Counted from the first letter of the stretch, positions 8,467-25,891 are shown. The stretch: 25,891 nt of DNA from an uncultured Halobacteria archaeon (GCA_964644925.1 CAZXYJ010000001.1:1-25891); one strand, 5' to 3'. Notes: generated from the letters alone by a model not told the origin. A program made the numbers and translations.

Positions 8467-9000
8467 ATGAATAAAGAAAATCATTCTTGGGATAAACAAG
8501 AAACTGAAACAAATCGGGCTTTTAATGCTTTTCTGGTTTATAAAAACATGGGTGCTTTGCGGTCGTTAAGAAAGGCAGCAGAGGAATTTTACGGTAATGC
8601 TTATATAACCAATAGTGTATCCAAAGTGAACATATTTAGAAGATGGTCAACCAAGCACAACTGGGTAGCTCGCTGCGGAGCTTACGACATAGAGCAGGAT
8701 AGAATATTCCAGGTAGAACAGCGAGAAGCGATAAGAGAAATGAACAAACGCCAGGCAAAAATCGGCGCAGCAATGCAAAACAAAGGCATAACTCGATTAT
8801 TGGATATGGATGTTAACGAACTCACGCCAGACCAAGCGGCGAGACTGGCAAAGACCGGCGTAGAAATAGAACGTCCGGCGAGAGGTGAAGCAACAGAAAT
8901 TAGCGAACATAAAGGTGAAGTCGGGATAAAGATTATAAAAGTGGAGCCTGAAGTAGCAAAGAAGATAGGGGATGAACTCGCGAAAAAGGATACCGGATGA
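8467..9000 (+). CDS. terS: Terminase small subunit (start 8455 or 8467)
   Basis: ETNRAFNAFLVYKNMGALRSLRKAA...WSTKHNWVAR HTH-type N-terminus; lies directly upstream of and overlaps terL. Confidence 0.7.
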   Translation: MNKENHSWDKQETETNRAFNAFLVYKNMGALRSLRKAAEEFYGNAYITNSVSKVNIFRRWSTKHNWVARCGAYDIEQDRIFQVEQREAIREMNKRQAKIGAAMQNKGITRLLDMDVNELTPDQAARLAKTGVEIERPARGEATEISEHKGEVGIKIIKVEPEVAKKIGDELAKKDTG

Positions 9001-10417
9001 AATACTCGAGACGGAATTACTTGAGAACAGCCCCGCATATTTCATCAAAACCATCTTCGGATACAGAATAGATGAGCCACACTGGAATATCCTAAGACAT
9101 TACGAAGAGATGCAAGAGACGTTAGATTTAGCACCGAGAGGTTGCGGCAAAACGAGAATAGGCAATATCGGTTACTGCGCCTGGCTTGCAGCAAACAATC
9201 CGAACATAAGAATATTGATAGTTTCGGATACGGATACACACGCAGTAAAATTCTTAGGCCCAATAAAAGCGGTCTTGGGGTCACATCCTTTAATTCGACA
9301 ATACTACGGCGACTTAAAAAGCAACAAGTGGACAGACCACGAGATAACACTGAAAACACGTACAGATAAGGTGCTCATGGAAGCGACTATATCAGCAATG
9401 GGTATGTATTCCGGTGCCGTAACGACCGGACATTATAACATAATCATAGCGGACGACCTAATCAATTTCGACAACAGCCGTACAGAAGGGCAGCGGGAAC
9501 GTAGCAAGGAGTGGTTTAAGACTACGTTACTTCCAACAATTTTACCGGGTGGTGAGATACACTGCTTAGGTACAAGATACCATTATAGCGAACTGTGGGA
9601 CTGTGTGCAGAACGAACTCGGATATGACACGCAAATACAACGTGCGATAATAGATGAAGGGCTGGAAACGGAACATTCGCTATGGGAACGGCACATGCCG
9701 CTACACACTAAAATCATAGGTAAGGAGCGAATAAAAGGATTAATAGAAATCCGAGAAGGAGACCCCGAAAACCCTTCAGATTCCGGCACAGGCAGCATAA
9801 TTTTCAACCTCCAGTATCAGAATGACGTGGAGCTACTGAAAGAGGGCAGGATATTCTTATACGACTGGTTTAAGTTTTACGAAGACATCCCTTCTGGACT
9901 CCGGATATATCAAGGAGTTGACCCAGCAATATCGCAGAAAAGCACCGCAGATTATTTCTGTCTTATTACAATCGGAATAGACCGCTTAAAGAACATCTAC
10001 GTGCTGGACATAATACGTGAACATCTGACCTTTGATAAGCAAATAGAGATGATAAAGCGGAAATGGGATGAATGGAAGCCAGACGTTACCGCTATTGAGA
10101 AGGTCGCATATCAAGAAGCTCTAATCCAACAAGTGCGAAAAGAGCACCCTGAGATGCGAGTGCGTGAGATACAAACCGGCACTGATAAAGTCAGCCGTGC
10201 ATATAGCCGCTCAGGACTATTTGAAAACGGTAAGATATTCGTGCGAAGAGACATGCACTTATTCATAGATGAGCTCGTGCTATTCCCAGATGCGAGACAC
10301 GACGACCAGTTTGACGCTTTCGACTTCGCTCTGGACGTGGGGTTGGCAACTAAAAGACCCGTATCTTCTTATGTCCCACCCCCCATAAGCCCTTCGGGTC
10401 CGGGAATAAGGATATGA
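8972..10417 (+). CDS. terL: Terminase large subunit
   Basis: Walker A APRGCGKT, Walker B IIIADD, coupling motif GTRYH, nuclease residues GVDPA and HDDQFDA. Confidence 0.93.
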   Translation: MNSRKRIPDEILETELLENSPAYFIKTIFGYRIDEPHWNILRHYEEMQETLDLAPRGCGKTRIGNIGYCAWLAANNPNIRILIVSDTDTHAVKFLGPIKAVLGSHPLIRQYYGDLKSNKWTDHEITLKTRTDKVLMEATISAMGMYSGAVTTGHYNIIIADDLINFDNSRTEGQRERSKEWFKTTLLPTILPGGEIHCLGTRYHYSELWDCVQNELGYDTQIQRAIIDEGLETEHSLWERHMPLHTKIIGKERIKGLIEIREGDPENPSDSGTGSIIFNLQYQNDVELLKEGRIFLYDWFKFYEDIPSGLRIYQGVDPAISQKSTADYFCLITIGIDRLKNIYVLDIIREHLTFDKQIEMIKRKWDEWKPDVTAIEKVAYQEALIQQVRKEHPEMRVREIQTGTDKVSRAYSRSGLFENGKIFVRRDMHLFIDELVLFPDARHDDQFDAFDFALDVGLATKRPVSSYVPPPISPSGPGIRI

Positions 10418-19669: not shown

Positions 19670-20572
19670 ATGGCAAACGCATTAAAGGATTTGGGAAAGT
19701 CGTGGGATAAAGACATCGTACCGGTATTGGCAGAGCAGACAATAGGTCGGAAGCTCATACCGAAAAACGCAGCGTTGAGTGGAAAAGGATTGGGGATGAC
19801 CTCTGTGGAGACACGAGCATACACGGCACGTTCCGGCGCAGTGATAAACTACGATATACAGGAAGATTTGGAAGATGCAGTTGACATAACATCCAAAACG
19901 CTGAAGATACCCGTGCAGCAAGATGACGCCCGGATAAAGAGAAGAGACTGGGAAGCATACAAACTCGCTGGTGTGGCTGTTGACAATGACATTGCGATTG
20001 ATATGGCGGCAAATGTCGCAGCGCAAGAAGACGCTCTGATTATAGACGGCTGGAAACCGAATGGAACCAATTACGCTCTCAAGGGTATGTATCAGGTAGC
20101 AAATAACACCTTTGGCGGCGCAACTTTCGGAACAGTGGGAAACGCTTTAGCGGCTGCTGCAAATGCAATTTCGCTGTTGAGGGCAGACAAGATATACAGT
20201 GTCGGATGGAATATGGTGTTAAATCCTGTCCAGTACGGGGAATTGGAGGCAAGCTATTCGACCACACTCGGTTTAGAGTATGACGCTGTTCTGAAGATGT
20301 TGAACAGAAACGCGCCAGGCAATCCGGGACGTATATACGAATCTTCAAATATAGCAGCGGGAACAGGTATGATTGCGCCGGTCGCAACTCCAGCGAACAA
20401 GAGGTTTTTCGACTTGGTCATAGCACAGGAGCCGAAACACGACATCTGGTACGAGACCTCTGAGGACACAGGTCCAATCAGAACACGGTTAGTCGGTGCT
20501 TTGGTGCCACGGTTCAAGCATCTTGACGGCAGCGATTTGGACAACTGTGTATGCACCTTAACGGGGATATGA
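19670..20572 (+). CDS. Major capsid protein, HK97 fold, encapsulin/linocin-like
   Basis: 300 aa; IGRKLIP, AAQEDALIIDG, MVLNPVQYGEL resemble family-1 encapsulin motifs; canonical position. Confidence 0.82.
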   Translation: MANALKDLGKSWDKDIVPVLAEQTIGRKLIPKNAALSGKGLGMTSVETRAYTARSGAVINYDIQEDLEDAVDITSKTLKIPVQQDDARIKRRDWEAYKLAGVAVDNDIAIDMAANVAAQEDALIIDGWKPNGTNYALKGMYQVANNTFGGATFGTVGNALAAAANAISLLRADKIYSVGWNMVLNPVQYGELEASYSTTLGLEYDAVLKMLNRNAPGNPGRIYESSNIAAGTGMIAPVATPANKRFFDLVIAQEPKHDIWYETSEDTGPIRTRLVGALVPRFKHLDGSDLDNCVCTLTGI

Positions 20573-21766: not shown

Positions 21767-22102
21767 ATGCCAACAATAACCAAATCAGGCTCCAAGGTAA
21801 CAGTTGGAGTAATGGAATATGCGGGAATACACATACCTGGAAAAGCTTTCGACTTGAAAAGTCATAATGGCGAAAGAATCCGGGTGCACATCAATAACGA
21901 CAACAAATTAACTATTGAAACCAAACCAACGCAGAAATTACTGGTTTGCGAACTCGACATTCCGGAAAGAAAATATATCCATACCAAAACGGCAGAGAAA
22001 GATGAGAAGGGCGAATACATCATAGAAACAAAAGAGAAGGAATTGAAGCTGGAAGAGATAGAAATGAAAGAATATCCGAAAGAGGTGATGAAAATAAAAT
22101 GA
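21767..22102 (+). CDS. Hypothetical protein (possible fibre adaptor)
   Basis: Lies between the fibre-like gene and the DGR target; ATGA overlap. Confidence 0.6.
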   Translation: MPTITKSGSKVTVGVMEYAGIHIPGKAFDLKSHNGERIRVHINNDNKLTIETKPTQKLLVCELDIPERKYIHTKTAEKDEKGEYIIETKEKELKLEEIEMKEYPKEVMKIK

Positions 22103-23430
22103 CGGAAGATCTGAGTCTAAGTGGATTGAGAAACAGGTTTAACCAGTTGAACGATTTGAATGAGAACTTCGTGGAATTCCCACGCAAAGCGACAAGTGGC
22201 TTTGGCGGTTCTGGAACTTATTTTGATAAAGGTTTCCGGGATGGTGTGTTAATAGGTGGCTGCTGGCTTGCGAAATATCCTATGAGCCGGCTGGACGCAA
22301 CGCCAAAGTCTCAGGGTAGTTCGGGCATACCCGTTTCGCAACCGCGAGTCCCTGCATGGACAACCGTAAACTGGCAAGCAGCACTTGAAGCTTGCAGATT
22401 AATGAACCGAAGCGATGAGCAGGCTTTAGCGAAAGCTTATGTTTCTGGTGGTGGTATTGGCTCTTTGGGAGATATAAACGGCTATCATTACATTCTTATA
22501 GATACCGATGCGCATTTTCTTGAACTTGCCGTGGGGAATCATATTGAGCTCTCACATCCACTTAGCGCAGCCGAAGCGGCTGCAATGAATACAAACAACT
22601 ACGATAATGCAATTCATACCAATACAACGACAGCGCCAACGGTGCGTTTAGGCAGTTCAAATCAATGGGTAGAAGGTGACGCCATTATCTATGAGCGAAA
22701 AGTGGCAAAGTTTGACCAGGTGAACAAGAAGATATATCTTACTGTTGCACTACCCACAAATGCGCTTGGCGTTGCAGACATAACGGCAAAATCAGGCGAC
22801 AGCGTAAGCGTCAGGAAATACGACCTTGTAGGACTTGAAGAGTGGGCAGCAATCAAGTTAGAATGTGCAATGCAGGCAAAAGCTGCGTCACCGTTTGGCG
22901 CGGATGGTTATCCAAAAGGGAATAATTCTTATGGAAGAGATACGGGCGATGCAGACGAATGGAGATATTACGGCGATAACGACCCGACTTACATTGCCGC
23001 TGGACATCCAATTTATAAAGTTCTGTGCGGTTCCGGTCCTGACTCGTGGTTCCATAACAACAACCGCAAGACAGGTGTATGGTGCTACAATGGAAATGTA
23101 TGGGATTGGATAAACGCAAAAGCGTACGATAGAAAAATCCAAGCTGGTTATCCTGGTGAAGGCTTTACGCTTCCAGCAACGAATAATTACGTAGCGACAA
23201 TAGAAGCAGCGGCCGCATTGTGCGGGGCAAAAGATTTGGCTTTACCGGTAACGGTCGGCGCGGCTTGCGCACAGTTTGGCAATGATTACTACTCTCAGAA
23301 TACAGGGGATAGGGCTTTTCTCGTTGGCGGCCGCTACGGCACGACCAGTGGTGCGGGGGTCTTCGCTGCGGGTATCGATACGACGCCTGACTGTGCGAAC
23401 GTGTACGTCGGCTTCCGTGCGGCCTTGTAA
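22099..23430 (+). CDS. DGR target protein, CLec/FGE-like fold (Mtd-like receptor-binding protein)
   Basis: LAKYPMS, WQAALEAC, EEWAA, GNVWDW and C-terminal VGGRY...GFRAAL variable-region pattern. Confidence 0.88.
   Translation: MTEDLSLSGLRNRFNQLNDLNENFVEFPRKATSGFGGSGTYFDKGFRDGVLIGGCWLAKYPMSRLDATPKSQGSSGIPVSQPRVPAWTTVNWQAALEACRLMNRSDEQALAKAYVSGGGIGSLGDINGYHYILIDTDAHFLELAVGNHIELSHPLSAAEAAAMNTNNYDNAIHTNTTTAPTVRLGSSNQWVEGDAIIYERKVAKFDQVNKKIYLTVALPTNALGVADITAKSGDSVSVRKYDLVGLEEWAAIKLECAMQAKAASPFGADGYPKGNNSYGRDTGDADEWRYYGDNDPTYIAAGHPIYKVLCGSGPDSWFHNNNRKTGVWCYNGNVWDWINAKAYDRKIQAGYPGEGFTLPATNNYVATIEAAAALCGAKDLALPVTVGAACAQFGNDYYSQNTGDRAFLVGGRYGTTSGAGVFAAGIDTTPDCANVYVGFRAAL
23312..23427 (+). repeat. DGR variable repeat (VR); 3' boundary inferred from the gene end
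   Basis: 23312-23342 aligns to 23537-23567 with 6 mismatches, all at template adenines. Confidence 0.85.
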
Positions 23431-23536
23431 CTGCCAAACCGAAAGGACGAAAACGAGCACATGGGAAAAAAAATCATAGTCATGGAGGAAAAAAACAAAA
23501 AAGAACCACATGATAAGGTTTGAGCGGAATAAGTCG

Positions 23537-23574
23537 AGGCTTTTCTCGTTGGCGGCAACTACAACAATAGTTCC
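23537..23574 (+). repeat. DGR template repeat (TR), 5' remnant only
   Basis: GCT TTT CTC GTT GGC GGC AAC TAC AAC AAT; AAC/AAT codons sit opposite the varied VR codons; cut off by IS607. Confidence 0.85.
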
Positions 23575-23577
23575 TTA

Positions 23578-24702
23578 TCATATAGAAGAATCTCCCTTTG
23601 ATAAGGTTGGCAGTGAACGGAGACTATAAACTCCCGCCAATCCCAGAGCCTCAAGATTCTTGGACGCATTGTAGTCCGCGTTTGCAGTATAACCGCATCT
23701 CAAACACACGAATCTCTCACCTCTGCGATTTCTCCTATCTATGTTGCCACAAACGGCGCATCTCTGCGATGTTTTCCAGGGGTTTTTGAGACTTATGCGT
23801 ATCCCCTTTTCTTCACAAATCTGCTTTAACCGCTCGCCGACCTTGGCATAAAGCCAGAAAGATAGGAGTCTATTCGATATTCGAGAGAACTTCCCCCGCT
23901 TACCCCTCTTCACATGCTTCAAATTCTCTAAAGAGATAAGTTTAACCACGTCAAGATTTAGCTGTTTGAGGAATCGGTTTGCCTCTGTTTCAATGAAGTG
24001 GTGCCAGCTTTTCCGCCGCTTTCCACCCCTCTTAATCGTTTCTTTCAACCCCTCTCCTATAAATTGATTATCAGATGTAACGAGCATAGAGTTTAATCCG
24101 CTATCTATTCCAATTACTTTTCCCTCTTCCCTCAATTCCGGGCGTTCCTTCTCAAACACCAAATCAATAAAAAGCCCTTTTTTGCGGTTGTACCCCAACC
24201 TTACTGATTGCCCCAGAACCCACCCCTCCTCTCGGAACTTATTGGTGTGGTGAGTCCAGTTAAAGGGAATGATAAGTTTAGGAACCCCGGAACCAAATTT
24301 AAGGCACATATCAAAAACCCCGTTAAAAGGTGTGATTTTTACAAACCGGCCATCCAGATTGGCAATAGCGGATTTAACCCTCGGCATCCGCCTCCTTTTC
24401 TTGGTGAGTTCGTTTTGAGAAAGAACCGTCTCATTTGCCTGTTTCGCACCGCATTGGCTCAATCTCGCGGTAACTCCAAATCGCTCCTCCACTCCCTTTG
24501 TGAACTCCTTTTTAGGGAGGGCGTTATCATCTGTGTCGTGGGATGCCCATAGGCGGGTGATGGAGTAGTTAAGAATGTTTTTGTAGAGGTGGAGGAAGGT
24601 TTTTAACTTCTCCGCCTTGCCCTTATTAATGCAGCTATTGAGGTAGATTCGTGATGTTCTCCTCATCCACCCAGAGTGTTTTCGTTTATATCGCTTCTTC
24701 AT
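23578..24702 (-). CDS. tnpB: TnpB RNA-guided nuclease
   Basis: RuvC-I VIGIDSG, RuvC-II SLENL, zinc finger CAVC...CLRC, RuvC-III NADYNASKNL. Confidence 0.93.
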   Translation of the reverse strand: MKKRYKRKHSGWMRRTSRIYLNSCINKGKAEKLKTFLHLYKNILNYSITRLWASHDTDDNALPKKEFTKGVEERFGVTARLSQCGAKQANETVLSQNELTKKRRRMPRVKSAIANLDGRFVKITPFNGVFDMCLKFGSGVPKLIIPFNWTHHTNKFREEGWVLGQSVRLGYNRKKGLFIDLVFEKERPELREEGKVIGIDSGLNSMLVTSDNQFIGEGLKETIKRGGKRRKSWHHFIETEANRFLKQLNLDVVKLISLENLKHVKRGKRGKFSRISNRLLSFWLYAKVGERLKQICEEKGIRISLKNPWKTSQRCAVCGNIDRRNRRGERFVCLRCGYTANADYNASKNLEALGLAGVYSLRSLPTLSKGDSSI

Positions 24703-25270
24703 TTTCCCCCTCCTTCAGTTCTTTAATTATCTTCTCTGTCTTCCTTTTACTCCTTCTCAATCCGTAATAGCGAGCACAGAAAGAGGTTATGATAGAAACT
24801 AAATCCTGCATCAAATCATCTTTATCCTCTGTTGCTTCATTTACAACTTCTATTTCACAATCAAGGGGCAAGAGGAGAGTGGAGAGGTAATTAAAGCCAA
24901 AGCGAGTTAATCTATCCTTATGCTCTACGATGATTTTTGTTGCCTTCCCCTCTCGCAGTATTTTTTGGAGTTTTGGACGGTTATCATTTACTCCAGAACC
25001 TACTTCTTTAACGACTTCTTTTATCTGATAACCACGGGCAATTGCATATTGTGTCAGTCTATCCGCTTGACTATTAAGATTGTTTTTATTCTCTGAAGAC
25101 GAAACACGGGAGTATATCACAATATAATCCCCCCTCCTCACCATCTCTTCTGGTACGATGATAGTGCCGCTTTCCGTCTTGAAAGCCCCCTTTATCTTCC
25201 CCGCTTTGAACCATTCCCAAGCAGTGCGATAACTTATCCCCAACCCCTTTGCATAAACCGATAGTTTCAT
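24686..25270 (-). CDS. tnpA: IS607 serine transposase TnpA (start reassigned to ATG 25270)
   Basis: N-terminal MerR-like HTH (GISYRTAWEWFKAGKI), catalytic YSRVSS, EHKDRLTRFGF. Confidence 0.95.
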   Translation of the reverse strand: MKLSVYAKGLGISYRTAWEWFKAGKIKGAFKTESGTIIVPEEMVRRGDYIVIYSRVSSSENKNNLNSQADRLTQYAIARGYQIKEVVKEVGSGVNDNRPKLQKILREGKATKIIVEHKDRLTRFGFNYLSTLLLPLDCEIEVVNEATEDKDDLMQDLVSIITSFCARYYGLRRSKRKTEKIIKELKEGENEEAI

Positions 25271-25296
25271 GTGATAATTATAATAAGAAAACATCC

Positions 25297-25345
25297 TATA
25301 TAAATGTTTAACTATTTTTACCTATACCTAACTATAAAATCATAT
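25297..25345 (-). promoter_or_regulatory. tnpA TATA box and IS607 left-end repeat array
   Basis: TTTATATA on the minus strand (25297-25304); TA(A/C)CTAT at 25309, 25319, 25329. Confidence 0.65.
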
Positions 25346-25355
25346 TGCTTTAATG

Positions 25356-25582
25356 ATACTGTATGGAAGGATCACAAAAAACTAAGAAGAAGAAATGTTG
25401 AGAGATTTATAAGCAGGCTGGATAAATTTGATAAAGCATCCTCAATAACCCCCTTCATCGTAGCATCTCTGATGAGTTGGAAAGGATATTCTATACACGC
25501 GGACGCTTTTGGATTGACAAAGCATTTATATGAATCACACCCGGTAATGCAAGCATCGGCATTGGAGAAATACACTGATTGA
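25356..25582 (+). pseudogene. C-terminal remnant of a DGR reverse transcriptase
   Basis: TVWKDHKKLRRRNV...SLMSWKGYSIHADAFGL resembles the post-FLGY / thumb segment of DGR RTs; no catalytic palm present. Confidence 0.75.
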
Positions 25583-25585
25583 AAT

Positions 25586-25885
25586 ATGACAGAAGATTAC
25601 CACCATTTCAGTGATTTCGCCGATACACAACCACAGTTTGAAGGCGAGAAGAAAAAAATACAAGAAATACTCAACAAGGAAATCCTCATTATTGGCTTTC
25701 GTATAGGCAAAAGCAAATACAAAGGCAAGAAATATCTTACGTTGCATTTTAAGTTGGATGGTGAAAAATATATTGTGTTCACTGGATCCAAGCCTTTGAT
25801 GGACTGTGCTCAGGAAGGCGAAAATGAAATGCCATATTACACGACCATCATTCAAAGAGGCGAATATTATATAATGACAAAATGA
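25586..25885 (+). CDS. Small beta-rich hypothetical protein directly downstream of the RT remnant
   Basis: Complete 99-aa ORF starting 3 nt after the RT stop; ILNKEI...VFTGS...PYYTTI. Confidence 0.7.
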   Translation: MTEDYHHFSDFADTQPQFEGEKKKIQEILNKEILIIGFRIGKSKYKGKKYLTLHFKLDGEKYIVFTGSKPLMDCAQEGENEMPYYTTIIQRGEYYIMTK

Positions 25886-25891
25886 ATCTGT

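Follow-up and report, generated by a model that had tools for sequence, protein, structure and literature searches.

An ANMV-1-like diversity-generating retroelement interrupted by an IS607 element in an archaeal virus contig

We analyzed a 25,891-nt stretch of DNA from an uncultured Halobacteria archaeon (GCA_964644925.1, CAZXYJ010000001.1:1-25891; hereafter the window, with all positions counted from its first base). The window very probably holds a diversity-generating retroelement (DGR) of the ANMV-1 type that was broken by an IS607-family insertion sequence (IS), which replaces about 1 kb of the cassette and leaves the variable repeat (VR) of the target gene fixed in cis. An earlier note on this DNA, made from the sequence alone, had proposed a DGR disrupted in this manner, and most of its observations are borne out below, with corrections to the breakpoint, to the route of the deletion, and to the extent to which diversification has ceased. 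The features on which the argument depends are as follows.

22099-23430, plus strand: adtA-like DGR variable (target) gene, 443 aa, encoding a tail-fibre-associated ligand-binding protein with an FGE-type C-type-lectin (CLec) fold
23312-23426, plus strand: VR, 115 nt, intact, forming the last 38 codons of the target gene
23537-23569, plus strand: stub of the template repeat (TR), the first 33 of 115 nt
23570-25355, minus strand: IS607-family insertion sequence, 1,786 bp, with ends uncertain by 3-4 nt
23578-24702, minus strand: tnpB, 374 aa, RNA-guided nuclease family (PF07282, E 2.8e-16; NF040570, 104 bits against a cut-off of 100)
24686-25294, minus strand: tnpA, 202 aa, IS607 serine transposase (NF033518, 184 bits against a cut-off of 110)
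25356-25582, plus strand: remnant of the DGR reverse transcriptase (RT), the last 74 codons (25358-25579) and the stop, aligning with residues 268-341 of the 341-aa RTs of the clade

Template stub, target gene and intact relatives

A search for relatives without the IS yielded three with complete TR and RT: an IMG/VR contig of 53 kb (L003), ANMV-1 itself (L004), and a JGI contig of 2,977 nt (L020). All three carry an intact cassette in which the target gene is followed by a gap, the TR, a spacer, an RT of 341-352 aa, and an open reading frame (ORF) of ≈98 aa. The VR/TR pairs of L003 and ANMV-1 are 115-118 nt long, and all 21 mismatches of L003 and 18 of the 19 of ANMV-1 lie at TR adenines; the corresponding counts are 23 of 24 in a further ANMV-1-like sequence (L018) and 17 of 20 in L020.

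The window retains the beginning of such a pair. Bases 23312-23342, within the end of the target gene, match 23537-23567 at 25 of 31 positions, and each of the six mismatches has an adenine in the downstream copy (four A>G and two A>C), with AAC codons of the TR facing CGC and GGC when read in frame with the 22099-23430 gene, exactly as the earlier note had described. The match extends two bases further, to 23569, with a single non-adenine mismatch (T23568 versus G23343), and the 33-nt stub as a whole differs from the window's own VR at seven positions, six at adenines and one a T>G change. This is the pattern expected of a TR/VR pair, and the stub is identical to positions 1-33 of the L020 TR. 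A chance match is excluded because L003, L004, L018, and L020 carry co-located VR/TR pairs of 113-118 nt with adenine-specific mismatches. Homology to L003, L004, and L020 ends at 23569, and from 23570 onward the sequence is that of the IS. The claim that the template is truncated at the IS therefore stands, with the stop moved from about 23574 to the 23569/23570 breakpoint; of the last 7 nt, which had been regarded as less certain, 23568-23569 are still TR and those from 23570 onward are IS.

L020 is the closest of the relatives in this region. It is 98.2% identical to window 21789-23569, with the differences lying nearly all inside the VR, and outside the VR the target genes are ≈99% identical. 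Comparison of the window VR with the two L020 repeats gave the following counts.

Window VR versus L020 TR, all 115 nt: 24 differences, affecting 21 of the 33 TR adenines and 3 of the 82 remaining bases (Fisher p 9e-12)
Window VR versus L020 TR positions 34-115, now deleted from the window: 17 differences, 15 at adenines (p 1.4e-8)
Window VR versus L020 VR: 25 differences, 21 at TR adenines

The adenine bias includes the part of the template that the window no longer has, and the VR was therefore written from a full-length TR of the L020 type. Judged from these alignments, the window VR is one DGR-generated variant, and past DGR activity is evident in the 21 TR-adenine sites among the 25 at which the window and L020 VRs differ.

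Six differences between VR and TR in this lineage are not at adenines. Five of them are T>G, at 23343, 23365, and 23382 in the window VR and at positions 54 and 68 in the L020 VR, position 54 being common to both; the remaining one is a C>G change at L020 VR position 9. Most of the T>G changes lie between adenines (ATA context) and adjoin a mutated A, and they may represent a secondary error signature of the lineage's RT.

The target protein itself supports the assignment. It is 83% identical to ANMV-1 AdtA over the full length and also matches PHROG tail-protein families. As a single sequence it found no match in a PDB search or in Pfam, and only its family profile reached the DGR variable protein TaqVP (PDB 5VF4, a solved structure with the FGE-type CLec fold), at an E value of 1.4e-36 and with an alignment running through the C-terminal VR. 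An AlphaFold2 model based on an alignment of 29 sequences reached a mean pLDDT of 39.5 and was too poor to use. The VR thus occupies the C terminus of a CLec-fold ligand-binding variable protein; the earlier reading of an adenine-specific DGR acting on a C-terminal CLec domain agrees with the TR/VR pairs of the relatives, the identity to AdtA, and the TaqVP profile match. The 3' end of the VR and the next 30 nt are conserved with L003 and ANMV-1, and a search for a hairpin downstream of the VR found no fold beyond shuffled controls (z +0.77). Elsewhere in the target gene, window 22461-22467 contains a tight cluster of six substitutions relative to L020, which change Ser-Leu to Gly-Ala at residues 122-123; the cluster is far from the VR and unrelated to adenines.

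The lost segment, the IS607 element and the breakpoints

All three intact relatives define the same gap. Homology to the window stops at 23569, where the IS begins, and resumes at 25356, where it ends, so that the segment between these points can be measured in each relative.

L003: homology stops at 23569 (L003 7492) and resumes at 25356 (L003 8520); 1,027 bp absent from the window (L003 7493-8519)
ANMV-1: homology stops at 23569 and resumes at 25356; 1,021 bp absent from the window
L020: homology stops at 23569 and resumes at 25356; 1,029 bp absent from the window

By comparison with L020, the ≈1,029 bp lost comprise TR positions 34-115 (82 of 115 nt), a spacer of ≈148 nt, and RT codons 1-267, which include the entire RVT_1 polymerase domain (fingers and palm). 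The net exchange is ≈1,029 bp out and 1,786 bp of IS607 in. That most of the TR and the RT palm had been deleted, as previously suggested, is thus confirmed against three relatives, whereas the accompanying suggestion that any accessory gene was lost is baseless: the intact relatives have no conserved accessory (Avd-like) ORF between TR and RT.

The stretch beyond the IS, previously described as a 75-codon fragment resembling an RT thumb, is the end of an ANMV-1-clade DGR RT. The remnant is 72-85% identical to the C termini of the clade's RTs, and a profile search of the 25356-25582 translation matched the reverse transcriptase family phrog_1423. It now forms the tail of a chimeric 92-codon ORF (25304-25582) that starts within the IS end, and a tblastn search of this ORF against GenBank phages returned a sole record, the RT of ANMV-1 (KP703175), at 71.6% identity and E 8e-31. 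No intact DGR-clade RT stands beside the TR in the window, and no RT in the protein collection has a C terminus more than 85% identical to the remnant. There was no signal of relaxed selection on it: the remnant has three unique residues, and intact homologues have zero to five. This unremarkable count fits a recent break without proving one. DGR RTs lying in two frames occur in two other sequences, the ANMV-1-like L018 (5322-6387, with the shift at about residue 113) and L019 (340-1357, at about residues 275-293); these are either further decaying DGRs of the clade or assembly errors.

The inserted element is an IS607 member by both of its proteins, which score above the respective family cut-offs, and by its ends, which are matched in independent copies. 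TnpA combines an N-terminal HTH domain (PF12728, HTH_17, residues 15-52) with a C-terminal resolvase domain (PF00239, residues 58-196), tnpA and tnpB overlap by 17 nt, and no terminal inverted repeats pair the two ends. IS copies in G008, an archaeal genome of the same family, are 84-89% identical to the window element; their homology ends at its end bases and their flanks are unrelated (L007, L010, L011). Further copies occur in other sediment runs, with difference-free stretches in other contexts in runs X3 and X7, so that the element is found with the same ends in different surroundings, as a mobile unit would be. The copies in same-family archaeal genomes (L007 and L009-L012, in G008; L025, L026, and L042) are diverged and mostly lie at contig ends. 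Multi-copy ISs are often left unassembled, and no second copy was found in the remainder of the metagenome-assembled genome (MAG) to which the window belongs. The closest TnpB proteins in reference genomes are those of 'Methanomicrobia archaeon LH_S13' (93% and 82%, partial matches) and 'archaeon Yes46-13' (78%), and IMG/VR viruses contain no close relative (best 39% identity); the IS is therefore of host type and was acquired by the virus. The shared element links the window virus to the host group of LH_S13/Yes46-13-type archaea.

The two breakpoints, 23569/23570 and 25355/25356, are each defined to within 3-4 nt, since the bases ATA (23567-69) and ATAC (25352-55) are common to IS and virus. 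On the strand of the IS, the joint on the tnpA side reads (virus) ...ACA-GTAT-CATT... (IS) and that on the tnpB side (IS) ...GGAAC-TAT-TGTTG... (virus). The corresponding intact sites in L020, on the same strand, are ...CGGTAT-ATCC... in the RT and ...CTGGTAT-TGTTG... in the TR, both GGTAT in the same orientation and 1,029 bp apart; the proposed targets thus have GGTAT or AGTAT on the RT side and GGTAT on the TR side. GTAT and TAT are also found at the joints of the G008 copies. TAT stands at both window joints, whose flanks lie 1 kb apart in the parent.

IS607 transposases recombine at a short core common to both ends and the target, via a circular intermediate (bioRxiv 10.1101/2023.11.20.567912). 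With a core shared between ends and targets, both junctions resemble normal insertion joints, each made at a different target. We propose that the IS607 serine transposase would have made both joints, at two look-alike targets of the same orientation in the TR and the RT, and that this could have happened in either of two ways: the IS inserted twice and its copies then recombined, or it inserted once and the transposase then recombined one of its ends with the second target. The loss was therefore probably transposase-mediated, or due to recombination between two insertions, and not a random later deletion. In this respect the view that the missing parts were deleted after insertion is only partly upheld: the ≈1-kb loss at the IS is real, yet both joints look like IS607 target joints.

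An ordinary illegitimate or microhomology-mediated deletion beside a simple IS insertion, with no involvement of the transposase, is an alternative that we consider unlikely. Each joint shares just 3-4 nt, and ATAC occurs 13 times within 1.3 kb of this AT-rich region, which makes the junction-motif argument suggestive only. Against such a deletion, the joint on the deleted side has the same GTAT overlap as an independent IS copy (G008 C188) and as the other target, and the IS end is complete to the last base common to other copies, where random loss would usually trim the IS end or leave extra viral bases.

The ancestor carried the canonical ANMV-1 DGR: adtA with the VR at its C terminus, then a gap of 106 nt, the TR of 115 nt, ≈148 nt of spacer, and an RT of 341 aa. 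An IS607 of archaeal-host origin has since taken the place of TR positions 34-115, the spacer, and the first 267 codons of the RT.

Diversification in cis and in trans

For homing, a DGR needs its RT and a TR transcript extending over the 3' homing region. The window encodes no working RT and no TR reaching the 3' homing end, and no other DGR RT is present in the remainder of the MAG (69.7% complete), where the only RT found is a group II intron maturase; diversification is therefore expected to be off in cis. The receptor-binding VR would then be fixed in cis at the last variant written. The earlier proposal that tropism diversification is switched off, with the VR as a record of the last variant, accordingly holds for events in cis and has to be relaxed for complementation in trans.

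Evidence for a possible partner in trans comes from Logan contigs of run X2, which, like those of run X1, are assembled contigs from which rare variants are dropped; Logan lists one of the two runs as SRR3085585. A 1,831-nt contig over the target gene (L016, depth 14.4) stops exactly at 23569 and has two continuations: the IS path at depth 5.3, and a contig of 161 nt (depth 4.9) that agrees without a difference over its next 30 nt with positions 34-63 of the L020 TR. An intact-TR allele therefore seems to coexist on the same backbone, beside the IS allele, in the likely source sample. Exact-pattern scans found nothing for the intact-allele TR in metagenome_contigs and nothing for the TR/IS junction in viral_contigs or metagenome_contigs, collections from which sequences close to the window may be missing. 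With an intact-TR allele in X2 and the intact sibling L020 in another JGI metagenome, trans-complementation during co-infection is possible.

Accordingly, the DGR could be broken in cis and still function, with co-infecting intact siblings supplying TR-RNA and RT so that the VR continues to diversify. In Bordetella phage, TR and RT supplied in trans support homing into the VR, and the conservation of the VR 3' end and the following DNA with intact relatives, together with the similar depths of the two X2 paths, would suit this possibility. We nevertheless regard it as unlikely: the contig covering the VR is unbranched at its depth of 14.4, with no abundant second VR variant on the backbone (contigs hide rare variants). 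A VR fixed in cis, in a DGR broken by the IS, remains the reading that we prefer.

Several points weigh against that reading or qualify it. The RT tail in window 25356-25522 is 89.8% identical to L020:2811-2977, which makes L020 a mosaic sibling and not a direct parent and suggests a recombination boundary within or near the DGR cassette, between the window and L020 lineages. The coexisting intact-TR allele is represented by one 161-nt Logan contig, of which 30 nt are shown, and is not listed for X1. The abundance of ATAC noted above applies equally to the inferred target joints. Lastly, the virus could carry a second DGR RT/TR elsewhere, given that the window is a partial viral genome and the MAG is 70% complete; none is present in the 38 kb of ANMV-1 outside its cassette.

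The break is probably recent, because the target gene is ≈99% identical to that of the sibling outside the VR, the RT remnant has no excess of unique substitutions, and an intact-TR allele seemingly persists.

The position of the IS raises a further possibility for interaction between siblings. In characterised IS607 elements, the omega-RNA guide is read from the flank beyond the tnpB-side end. Here, the candidate TnpB guide is the reverse complement of 23547-23566 (minus strand), within the retained TR stub beside that end. This 20-mer matches the intact L020 TR at 20 of 20 positions and is preceded there by GGTAT, resembling the AGTAT beside the other IS end, whereas 5 of its 20 positions differ from the virus's own VR as a result of DGR mutagenesis. 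The tnpB 3' end with its flank folds better than shuffled sequences (z -3.0). It is conceivable, though we think it decidedly improbable, that the IS607 TnpB cuts the intact DGR templates of co-infecting siblings and so copies itself and the DGR deletion into them; if this were true, it would amount to an RNA-guided drive spreading a DGR knock-out through the virus population.

The arrangement is also found beyond the MAG contig. A JGI contig (L014, 2,788 nt) crosses both junctions and agrees with 23426-25891 at 100% identity. In the Logan assemblies, contigs of run X1 cover 22900-24250 and 25281-25866 and those of run X2 cover 23540-24064 and 24309-25891; in both runs each junction is crossed at even depth (18.2, 16.8, and 22.6 in X1). 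The L014 and X1/X2 contigs probably derive from one sample and thus represent independent assemblies and not independent biology, but the junctions, which the earlier note had flagged as possible chimeras, have the same structure in all three assemblies that span them. A chimera, in which host-IS repeats were mis-joined and the DGR of the virus is actually intact, might be invoked because the IS is multi-copy in the community (with other-context copies in X3, X7, and G008) and the X2 assembly graph forks exactly at 23569, but it is highly improbable given the identical structure in the different assemblies, the even X1 depth, and IS flanks that are both viral and collinear with the relatives, and because a mis-join would not also remove exactly the DNA between two GGTAT sites.

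Viral setting and relation to known systems

The window is the entire contig C1 of the MAG (1.33 Mb, 235 contigs, 69.7% complete), which contains mcrA. Contig C1 encodes a large terminase (8972-10417), a Mu-F-like head protein, an HK97/linocin-type capsid protein (19670-20572), and a tail-fibre-like protein, and its gene order is syntenic with ANMV-1. These genes and the synteny establish the virus-borne location that had been claimed for the DGR: the window belongs to an ANMV-1-like head-tail virus infecting mcrA-bearing archaea and covers part of its genome. The hosts are probably ANME-type; a protein-atlas search with the McrA fragment of the MAG returned no meaningful match.

ANMV-1, a methane-seep virus, provided the first archaeal-system DGR, which comprises an RT, repeats of 114 bp, and AdtA as the target (PMC4372165; Paul et al. 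2015, Nat Commun 6:6585; KP703175). The window resembles it in the order of the tail-fibre genes, adtA, TR, RT, and ≈98-aa ORF, in the length and place of the VR, and in sequence (83% for the target and 72% for the RT C terminus). ANMV-1 is intact, as are L003 and L020; the window has lost 82 of the 115 TR nucleotides together with the spacer and RT codons 1-267 and has an IS607 in their stead. With Bordetella phage BPP-1 (Mtd) and Thermus aquaticus TaqVP it shares adenine-specific TR-to-VR differences and a VR at the C terminus of an FGE-type CLec-fold protein; unlike those DGRs, the window clade has no conserved Avd-like ORF and an archaeal host, and the window element is defective.

Reference accounts of the IS607 family are those of Boocock & Rice 2013 (Mob DNA 4:24) and Zedaveinyte et al. 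(bioRxiv 10.1101/2023.11.20.567912). The window element follows the family in its TnpA with HTH and resolvase domains, its tnpA/tnpB overlap, the absence of terminal inverted repeats, the short core at ends and targets, and the presence of multiple diverged archaeal copies. Its core appears to be TA(T) preceded by G, in contrast to the GG core of characterised clostridial IS607 elements, and it further differs in residing in a virus genome and in being accompanied by a 1-kb loss of flanking DNA.

The window is thus well supported as a degenerate ANMV-1-family DGR together with a new IS607 member. Decay of this kind in a known system is an ordinary event, and it leaves the understanding of DGRs or of IS607 unchanged. 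Inactive DGRs as such are known from surveys (PMC8144416), and our literature search found no paper linking a DGR with IS607 disruption. The case is of interest as a natural knock-out of the only well-described archaeal-virus DGR with near-identical intact siblings for comparison, a pairing that makes two questions testable: whether selection acts continuously on tropism hypermutation in ANME-associated viruses, and at what rate a VR drifts after its engine is lost. It also shows clearly that an archaeal virus can carry an IS607/TnpB element of host type, and it ties the virus to mcrA-bearing archaea that carry the same IS.

Directly downstream of the RT remnant lies one further conserved gene, which serves as a synteny anchor.

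25586-25885, plus strand: conserved gene, 99 aa, with homologous ORFs directly 3' of the RT in L003, ANMV-1, L018, and L019

An Rfam scan of the whole window matched no family. In the host bin, contig C5 of G000 (L002:949-2328) encodes a complete group II intron reverse transcriptase/maturase with the domains RVT_N, RVT_1, and GIIM.

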